Of a stretch of 64,000 nt of DNA, positions 12,001 through 15,000 are shown piece by piece. Each line of letters starts with the position of its first letter. The stretch's first letter is position 1. The position numbers are program-made. Source of the stretch: Escherichia coli (lineage in GTDB: Bacteria; Pseudomonadota; Gammaproteobacteria; Enterobacterales; Enterobacteriaceae). The stretch lies in NCBI RefSeq assembly GCF_017348835.2, contig NZ_CP072312.1; one strand, 5' to 3'.

Positions 12001-15000
12001 TCCGCGAGATTTTTCGCAGTATGTTGACCGCAAATACAGTCTGGCTGAACTGATCCACACCTGGTCAGATTTGGCGGGACTGACATACGATGGTTACGAT
12101 CCGACCCGTTCTCTGGTGAATCCGCAATTCAGGGAAACCCCCCGCTGGATTGGAAATCCGTATAAAAAGAATGGGCTCACTGATTTCGACACTCTTCCGT
12201 ATGGTGAGCCATAGTATTTTCTTATCTTCGGTTCCGTTCTGAAGGCAGGAGGATGTGTTTTCCTCTGCTGTCCGGTGGCCTCCAGGGATGGTACCACCTT
12301 CTGCTGTCCGGTGGCCTCCAGGGATGGTACCACCTTCTGCTGTACTCTGTTATCATAATGAGATAAGCAGGCAGATACCGGTAAATATGAAAAATATCAG
12401 AACTGAGTTTATTCCCCGCTTTAACCTTACATTATGCTTCCCCCGTTACTGGATGACGTGGACAGGTATCGGTATTATCTGTGTGTTTGCAATGGTCCCC
12501 CCCGCACTGAGAGATCCATTGTTGGGAAAATTGGGCATGCTGGTTGGGCGTCTGGGGAAAAGCGCACATCAACGGGCCTTGATTAATTTATCGCTTTGTT
12601 TTCCGGAGTACAGTGATAAAGAAAAGGAGAATATCGTTGATGCCATGTTTGCAACAGCCTCCATGGCCGTTGTGCTTATGGCTGAATTAGCACTGTCCGG
12701 GCCTGATAAAATTTCGCATCGTATACGCTGGAATGGTCTGGAGATTGTGGAGAAGATGGCACAGAACAATGAAAAGGTCATTTTTCTTGTGCCACATGCC
12801 TGGGGAGTGGATATTCCCGCAATGCTGATGGCTGCGTCGGGCAGAAAAATGGCAGCGATGTTTCATAACCAGAGAAATCCGGTGGTGGATTATGTCTGGA
12901 ACAGTGTTCGTCGTCGTTTCGGAGGAAAACTGCACGCACGTAATGACGGTATTGCCTCCTTTGTCCGCTCAGTCCGGCAGGGATACTGGGGATATTATCT
13001 TCCTGATCAGGATCATGGCCCGGAATTCAGTGAGTTTGCAGATTTTTTTGCGACGTATAAAGCAACTTTACCGGTTATCGGACGGCTCAGCAGGATCAGT
13101 GGTGCACGGATAATACCGCTTTTCCCTGTTTATGACGGAAAGACCCATCATCTGACTATTCATGTCAGCCCGCCACTTGCTATACGACAGAAGAGTGATG
13201 CTCATATTGCGCGACAGATAAACGAAGTGGTTGAAAATTTCGTTCGTCCACATCCTGAGCAGTATACGTGGATCCTCAAGTTGCTGAAAACGCGTAAAGA
13301 AGGGGAAGAGGATCCTTACTGAGGCAGGTTTTTCAGGATAATGAGCTTACCCAGCAATAGTGGACACACGCTAAGTGAGTAAACTCTCAGTCAGAGGTGG
13401 CTCATATGACAAAAGTAAGCGTACAGCCTGAACCGTCTGGTCAGAATCTGACGAATTAGACAAAGTGGTGTCCACCAAATAAGTAGTGGGAACCAAAGTA
13501 TCAGATATGCAGAAAAATGTGACTCCCGGCAGGCGAAAAGGCTGCCCTAATTATCCTCCCGAATTTAAACAGCAGCTCGTTGCTGCCTCCTGTGAACCCG
13601 GGATATCCATCTCAAAACTTGCTCTTGAAAATGGCATTAACACCAATCTGTTGTTCAAATGGCGACAACAATGGCGCGAGGGAAAGCTGCTATTACCTTC
13701 TTCAGAGAGCCCCCAGCTACTTCCTGTGACTCTCGATGCAGCTGCCGAACAGCCAGAATCGCTCTGAACCGCCCCGGGTTTCCTGGAGAGTATTTTATCT
13801 GTGAACTCAGGCTGCCAGATCATTATTTCCGATGGAAGCATAATAAGCTTTTTCTGCTTCTGCCGGAGGAATATGGCCCAGCCTTTCCAGCAATCGTCGA
13901 TTGTTATACCAGTCCACCCACGTGAGTGTGGCCAGTTCCACTTCTGCACGGTTTTTCCAGCTCTTACGGTGTATTACCTCCGCTTTGTAAAGACCATTGA
14001 TGCTCTCCGCCATCGCGTTGTCATACGAGTAACCTGTACTCCCTGTTGATGCCAGCAGTTTTGCTTCTTTTAGTCGCTCCGTATAGGCCAGTGATACATA
14101 CTGAGAACCTTTATCACTGTGATGGACTGTGCCGGACGGCCGACGGGCCCACAACGCCTGCTCCAGTGCATCCTGAACCGCCCCGGAAATCCTGGAGACT
14201 AAACTCCCTGAGAAAGAGGTAAACAGGATGACTAAAAATACTCGTTTTTCCCCCGAAGTCCGTCAGCGGGCGATTCGTATGGTTCTGGAAAGTCAGGATG
14301 AATATGACTCACAGTGGGCGGCAATTTGTTCCATTGCCCCAAAGATTGGCTGTACGCCGGAGACTCTGCGTGTCTGGGTTCGCCAGCATGAGCGGGATAC
14401 CGGGAGTGGTGATGGTGGACTCACCACCGCTGAACGTCAGCGTCTGAAAGAGCTGGAACGTGAAAATCGTGAACTGCGCCGCAGTAACGATATCCTTCGC
14501 CAGGCTTCCGCTTATTTTGCGAAGGCGGAGTTCGACCGCCTCTGGAAAAAATAATGCCACTGCTGGATAAGCTGCGTGAGCAGTACGGGGTCGGACCGGT
14601 ATGCAGCGAACTGCATATTGCCCCGTCAACGTATTACCATTGTCAGCAACAGCGACATCATCCGGATAAACGCAGTGCCCGTGCGCAGCACGATGACTGG
14701 CTGAAGAAAGAGATACAGCGCGTATACGATGAAAATCACCAGGTATACGGTGTGCGTAAAGTCTGGCGTCAGTTGTTACGGGAAGGTATCAGAGTGGCCA
14801 GATGCACTGTGGCACGTCTCATGGCAGTTATGGGACTTGCCGGTGTTCTCCGGGGTAAAAAGGTCCGCACTACCGTCAGCCGGAAAGCCGTTGCCGCATG
14901 CGACCGCGTAAACCGTCAGTTCGTGGCAGAACGTCCAGACCAGTTGTGGGTGGCTGATTTTACCTGGGTAAGCACATGGCAGGGCTTCGTCTATGTGGCG

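Follow-up and report, generated by a model that had tools for sequence, protein, structure and literature searches.

Replication slippage and unequal sister exchange at microhomology classically take place at short direct repeats, and E. coli slipped-strand duplications and deletions of this kind are known from RecA-independent misalignment mutagenesis. Phase-variable contingency loci contain simple-sequence or VNTR repeats in promoters or ORFs. Spontaneous small tandem duplications have been described within single EHEC lineages as well: in the O157:H7 strain 86-24, a 5-bp tandem duplication disrupts rcsB (PMC5343319). Reviews describe the ecf operon as a lipid-A/LPS modification system that is thermoregulated via the upstream regulatory region of its promoter (PMC2811833; PMC2323221).

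Here we describe a 36-bp tandem duplication in the ecf operon of an E. coli virulence plasmid, which is probably a real, recent event private to this plasmid and most likely neutral. It is a new allele from a very well known mutational mechanism. Nothing essential sets it apart from the E. coli slipped-strand duplications and deletions, with which it shares an 8-bp repeat 36 nt apart, an exact head-to-tail copy, and the character of a single private event; the reciprocal deletion allele was not found in plasmids. Like the rcsB duplication, it is a small tandem duplication that arose spontaneously in one EHEC lineage, but that one lies in a gene, shifts the reading frame, and has a clear phenotype, whereas this one is intergenic, a multiple of three in length, and has no predicted consequence. 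As a tandem repeat just upstream of a gene for a surface structure (LPS), it recalls the contingency loci, from which it differs in consisting of two copies of a long unit, in not occupying a promoter spacer, and in changing no frame; above all, the array lacks the copy-number polymorphism among relatives that defines such loci.

RESULTS

The ecf operon on a pO103/pO157-type plasmid

The window (the whole stretch of 64,000 nt of contig NZ_CP072312.1 that was analyzed) belongs to a large EHEC virulence plasmid of the pO103/pO157 type, with etp/stcE, the ecf operon, ehxCABD, and an F-type tra region. For the backbone, the closest matches are pO103 (NC_013354) and plasmids related to it (99.6% identity). 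The operon agrees with the pO157 ecf operon (ecf1 to ecf4/msbB2) in its four genes and in their order and is ca. 99.8% identical to the pO157-type allele in this region (Table 1). The plasmid differs from pO157 in its pO103-like backbone and in an ecf3-ecf4 spacer that is 36 nt longer. The cptA-msbB2 spacer, which contains the repeat, is 172 nt long here.

The operon turned out to be modular across plasmids. Besides the order deacetylase-GT4-CptA-LpxM found in EHEC, there is a variant deacetylase-GT4/CapU-VirK-LpxM (Salmonella salamae and ETEC) and one in which LpxM directly follows deacetylase-GT4 (E. coli EF7-18-58 and E. albertii). For Shigella, the stretch examined in one record covered lpxM and no other gene of the operon.

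Table 1. Coordinates of the ecf genes and of the features of the cptA-msbB2 spacer in the window
Feature	Position	Strand	Basis or remark
ecf1, polysaccharide deacetylase	8476-9297
ecf2, GT4 glycosyltransferase	9297-10403
ecf3 = phosphoethanolamine transferase CptA, 573 aa	10493..12214	+	NCBIfam PRK10649 CptA, 1061.8 bits; annotation of relatives
Candidate small upstream ORF of 37 codons (25 codons in one-unit alleles)	12253..12366	+	Unsupported as coding
In-frame upstream extension of the msbB2 ORF	12255..12386	+	GTG 12255; the units contain ATG 12288 and 12324; not covered by the LpxM family profile
36-nt unit, copy 1	12264..12299	+	TCTGCTGT + 28-nt core CCGGTGGCCTCCAGGGATGGTACCACCT
36-nt unit, copy 2	12300..12335	+	Identical to copy 1
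Third TCTGCTGT 8-mer (8-bp microhomology), beginning a third unit	12336..12343	+	In one-unit alleles, makes up the direct repeat together with the 8-mer at the 5' end of the unit
msbB2-proximal block, TGTTATCATAATGAGATAAGCAGGCAGATACCGGTAAAT	12348..12386	+	Sole part of the spacer common to cptA-less operon variants
msbB2/lpxM, 311 aa, from the most likely true start codon	12387..13322	+	LpxM profile, homologues, frame-breaking indel

Structure of the repeat

Tandem Repeats Finder reported positions 12264-12343 as an array with a period of 36 nt, 2.2 copies, 100% matches, no indels, and a score of 160, the sole perfect long-unit repeat among the 16 rows returned for the window. The unit, TCTGCTGTCCGGTGGCCTCCAGGGATGGTACCACCT, is present in two identical copies, after which come the 8 nt that begin a third, and the repeat search accordingly found the 8-mer TCTGCTGT three times, at 12264, 12300, and 12336. 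The 36-nt copies abut exactly, head to tail, with nothing between them. The 28-nt core occurs at these two sites only in the 64-kb window, against 0.00 occurrences expected (100 shuffles).

The array starts at 12264, since the bases at 12263 (C) and 12299 (T) differ; at its right border, the mismatch is between 12344 (A) and 12308 (C). From the end of the array to the msbB2 ATG at 12387 there are 43 nt. These data agree with an earlier, sequence-only reading of this DNA, which had reported two exact 36-bp copies plus the start of a third in the ecf3-msbB2 intergenic region, 44 bp upstream of the start codon (ecf3 ends at 12214). That reading gave the span as 12265-12343, of which the end is correct and the start has to be moved one base upstream.

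The start codon of msbB2

The longest msbB2 ORF here begins with GTG at 12255 and encodes 355 aa. In public one-unit records, lpxM is annotated either from an ATG inside the unit (332 aa; PGAP, Sakai) or from the upstream GTG (343 aa; EDL933 and pO103), that is, 21 to 32 codons before the family N-terminus, and in both backgrounds checked, the 332-aa pO157-type form is found on at least 1,000 contigs. With the LpxM subfamily profile PRK08943, however, the alignment begins at profile position 3 and residue 44 of the 355-aa ORF; with the equivalog TIGR02208 it begins at residue 52. For all the plasmid LpxM homologues with 65 to 80% identity (from E. albertii, S. salamae, Shigella, and ETEC), the alignment begins at residue 1 of the 311-aa form, and the annotated start of most of them is the same Met as that of 12387, the S. 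salamae record starting 8 codons earlier. The divergent alleles of pRHB14, ST865, and pSTEC506 have a 10-nt indel located between the unit and the ATG; the extension is thereby out of frame in them, and the form called by PGAP is that of 311 aa.

Because the LpxM profile, the homologues, and the frame-breaking 10-nt indel all point to it, ATG 12387 is most likely the true start of msbB2, as judged from these comparisons, and with this start the repeat lies in the cptA-msbB2 spacer. The repeat region itself does not behave as part of the LpxM/MsbB coding sequence: no profile or homologue alignment reaches it, and the frame is broken across alleles. The misleading extension of the msbB2 ORF that the duplication had been thought to create does exist, but it is already present in the one-unit alleles, and the duplication adds 12 codons to it. 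The locus highlights a systematic annotation problem, the placing of the lpxM start inside the 36-nt unit or at the upstream GTG, and for this plasmid gene callers will give a further LpxM variant of 344 or 355 aa.

Unit number among relatives

We then determined the unit number of this locus in public collections. The 401-nt query region was present in 507 plasmid records and in 541 of the 5,426 complete E. coli genomes, and more than 96% of the matching records showed at least 99% identity. The approximately 80 matches listed all span 365 nt against the 401-nt query, i.e., one unit fewer. Direct alignment of pO45 and pO157 Sakai gave the one-unit state, TCTGCTGT, 28 nt, TCTGCTGT, ACTCTG. One of the two 36-nt copies is thus extra DNA, missing from all the relatives inspected.

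The junction was searched for with a 38-mer over the unit-unit border, to which a one-unit allele gives at most 23 contiguous matches against a megablast word of 28 bases. This probe, which requires an exact 28-mer (a junction SNP would hide a two-unit allele from it), had no match in the plasmid and E. coli genome collections, while a control 38-mer over the right border, run on the plasmid collection only, matched 493 plasmid records at 99% identity or more. No match was obtained for a junction 30-mer in the metagenome and species-representative genome collections, nor for a synthetic 0-unit probe representing the reciprocal 36-nt deletion in the plasmids. At the protein level, exact look-up among 15 billion proteins found all the one-unit LpxM forms (the two 332-aa forms on at least 1,000 contigs each) and none of the two- or three-unit extended forms in the H61 and R61 backgrounds; this look-up depends on the start chosen by the gene caller, and a two-unit allele called from the ATG of the last unit would escape it.

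Judged from these searches, in collections dominated by a few EHEC clones, the locus is monomorphic, with a single unit, and the duplication belongs to this record alone. The unit structure of related plasmids had been set beforehand as a test, and the two-unit array turned out not to be common to them: they uniformly carry one unit, an outcome different from both of those foreseen. Since none of the other public records searched contains the junction sequence, this sequence could be used as a lineage-specific marker.

Origin of the duplication

In the one-unit allele, the end-points of the duplication coincide with a perfect 8-bp direct repeat whose copies lie 36 nt apart. Starting from an ancestral ecf3(cptA)-msbB2 spacer with the arrangement TCTGCTGT, 28 nt, TCTGCTGT, the nascent strand would have copied the second 8-mer, re-paired with the first one, and copied the intervening 36 nt again. 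The same product would be expected from an unequal, RecA-independent exchange in which sister copies pair at these 8-mers, and the outcome would be two perfect units with a residual 8-mer. The proposal of the sequence-only reading that the array reflects a recent slipped-strand event is upheld by the single unit with its 8-bp direct repeat in the relatives inspected and by the absence of the junction from all other records searched. The divergent allele has TCCGCTGC and TCTTCTGT as its two 8-mers, which match at only 5 of 8 positions, so the perfect microhomology is specific to the pO157/pO103-type allele. A DNA hairpin in the unit was also considered as a driver of slippage and was rejected, the GGTGG/CCACC stem being weak (-6 to -7 kcal/mol) and not above shuffled controls.

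An artefact of assembly, sequencing, or cloning would mean that the source plasmid has one unit and that the second copy arose in the making of the record. This would fit with the junction being seen in this window alone across every collection searched, but several observations make it unlikely. The end-points match the 8-bp microhomology exactly, as a biological slip predicts, and assemblers and consensus callers are not known to yield, as a rule, clean, in-register 36-nt duplications within otherwise unique sequence. Nor does the assembly seem to be a poor one, since the neighboring ecf genes are full length and the differences from the nearest relative are few (8 mismatches and 3 small gaps over 6.5 kb, with no excess of indels). 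The same plasmid, moreover, carries another private and clearly biological change, a nested insertion of an IS with a 3-bp target duplication. We infer that the duplication is present in the DNA rather than introduced by the assembly and that slippage was the mechanism.

Predicted effect on msbB2

CptA-containing and CptA-less operons were compared upstream of lpxM. Homology between them resumes only ca. 40 nt before lpxM, and in the cptA-less operons of E. coli EF7-18-58 and E. albertii RM15112 it is limited to 12348-12386, a block that presumably is the translation-initiation region. The 36-nt array lies upstream of this 39-nt block, which is untouched by the duplication. What the duplication does is to lengthen the spacer from 136 to 172 nt, within a part of the polycistronic ecf mRNA that is not conserved, and since 36 nt is a multiple of three (12 codons), no reading frame is changed. 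Other alleles carry natural indels of 10 and 4 nt in the same spacer, which argues that its length is not tightly constrained.

The mean unpaired probability around the msbB2 start predicted by McCaskill folding was 0.47, 0.48, and 0.48 for one, two, and three units, respectively. The suggestion that the duplication alters the initiation of msbB2 translation thus found no support, the proximal block being intact and the predicted accessibility of the start the same for one to three units. The spacer had no Rfam match at E ≤ 1 and no significantly stable fold (z = -1.24 and -1.08), on which grounds a structured RNA or riboswitch was rejected. No promoter-like site was found in the repeat or created by it; the sole promoter-like match, at 12186-12215, is outside the repeat, and one site equals the chance expectation, so an internal promoter provided by the repeat was rejected as well.

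The duplication most likely has no or a negligible effect on MsbB2 production, as far as conservation and folding predict, and the best-supported reading on the same grounds is that it would be selectively neutral or nearly so. Its biological weight appears small: a textbook slippage product in a length-tolerant spacer of one plasmid.

The sequence-only reading had also raised the possibility of a copy-number-variable switch. In a regulatory switch of this kind, frequent changes of unit number would tune msbB2 expression in the style of a contingency locus. The repeat does sit on the msbB2 mRNA leader, the Shine-Dalgarno sequence of msbB2 is weak (-3.6 kcal/mol), and its translation could be context-sensitive. 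A perfect 36-nt tandem pair, once formed, is also itself prone to further slippage. Such a switch would, however, show itself in unit number, and no polymorphism was found in 493 to 507 plasmids (0-, 2-, and 3-unit alleles) or in the 541 genomes (2- and 3-unit alleles). The repeat, moreover, lies outside the conserved msbB2-proximal block, leaves the predicted accessibility the same, and contains no promoter-like element, and the nearby natural 4- and 10-nt indels are tolerated. Taken with these findings, a switch is very improbable. If it were true that unit number affects MsbB2, this would bear on lipid A acylation and on the innate immune recognition of EHEC, but nothing here points that way.

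Upstream reading frames

A further alternative to a neutral duplication is a coding change, by which 12 residues would be inserted in a translated sequence, either an N-terminally extended MsbB2 (from GTG 12255 or from ATG 12288 or 12324) or a small upstream ORF at 12253-12366. For the extended protein speak the public annotations of lpxM from the unit ATG or from the GTG, and for both frames the strong AGGAGG just upstream of ATG 12253 and GTG 12255. Against the extension, the LpxM profile and all the homologues with 65 to 80% identity start at the Met of 12387, and its frame is broken by the 10-nt indel of pRHB14, ST865, and pSTEC506.

The small upstream ORF was analyzed separately. Its ATG at 12253 directly follows the AGGAGG, the one-unit peptide is MCFPLLSGGLQGWYHLLLYSVIIMR, and its stop lies 20 nt before the msbB2 ATG. 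The 25-codon version is open in two allele types, pO157 and pRHB14, and the insert is a multiple of three. The ratio of synonymous to non-synonymous codon changes is 2:2, however, with no frame preferred, and a 4-nt deletion in pSTEC506 shifts the frame. The AGGAGG (-9.7 and -10.3 kcal/mol) is too close to ATG 12253 and GTG 12255, at 0 to 2 nt. The peptide was never called among the 15 billion proteins, and the sequence is absent from the cptA-less operons. A small upstream ORF or leader peptide as a conserved coding sequence was rejected on the frames of five alleles, the codon changes, the Shine-Dalgarno spacing, and the protein database, and a coding change of either kind is highly doubtful.

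Hardly to be expected, too, is that the array would be an incipient contingency locus, an unstable and reversible expansion on the msbB2 leader that, via a longer translated upstream ORF or an altered delivery of ribosomes to the weak start, would change the MsbB2 level and hence the hexa-acylation of lipid A in this EHEC lineage.

Other repeats and insertions in the window

Downstream of msbB2, a nested IS629-like insertion occupies 13765-16387. A complete copy of 1,310 bp at 14174-15483, with the terminal repeat TGAACCGCCCCGG and a 3-bp target duplication, TCC, splits an older, oppositely oriented IS629-like copy into the segments 13765-14173 and 15484-16387. Since the copy in the nearest relative, pO45 (CP157148), is uninterrupted, the nested insertion is a second private change of this plasmid.

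Two other sites with tandem repeats were noted. At 21461-21534 there is an imperfect 27-nt tandem repeat (2.7 copies, 70% matches) in the minus-strand ORF 20954-23968, which corresponds to ehxA in relatives; it probably represents RTX nonapeptide repeats. Two short tandem arrays at 41272-41421, one of 11 nt × 4.5 and one of 21 nt × 2.5, lie just upstream of the ORF 41626-42603; since this ORF is in a region where relatives annotate a RepB-family replication initiator, the arrays may be iteron-like repeats of the replicon.
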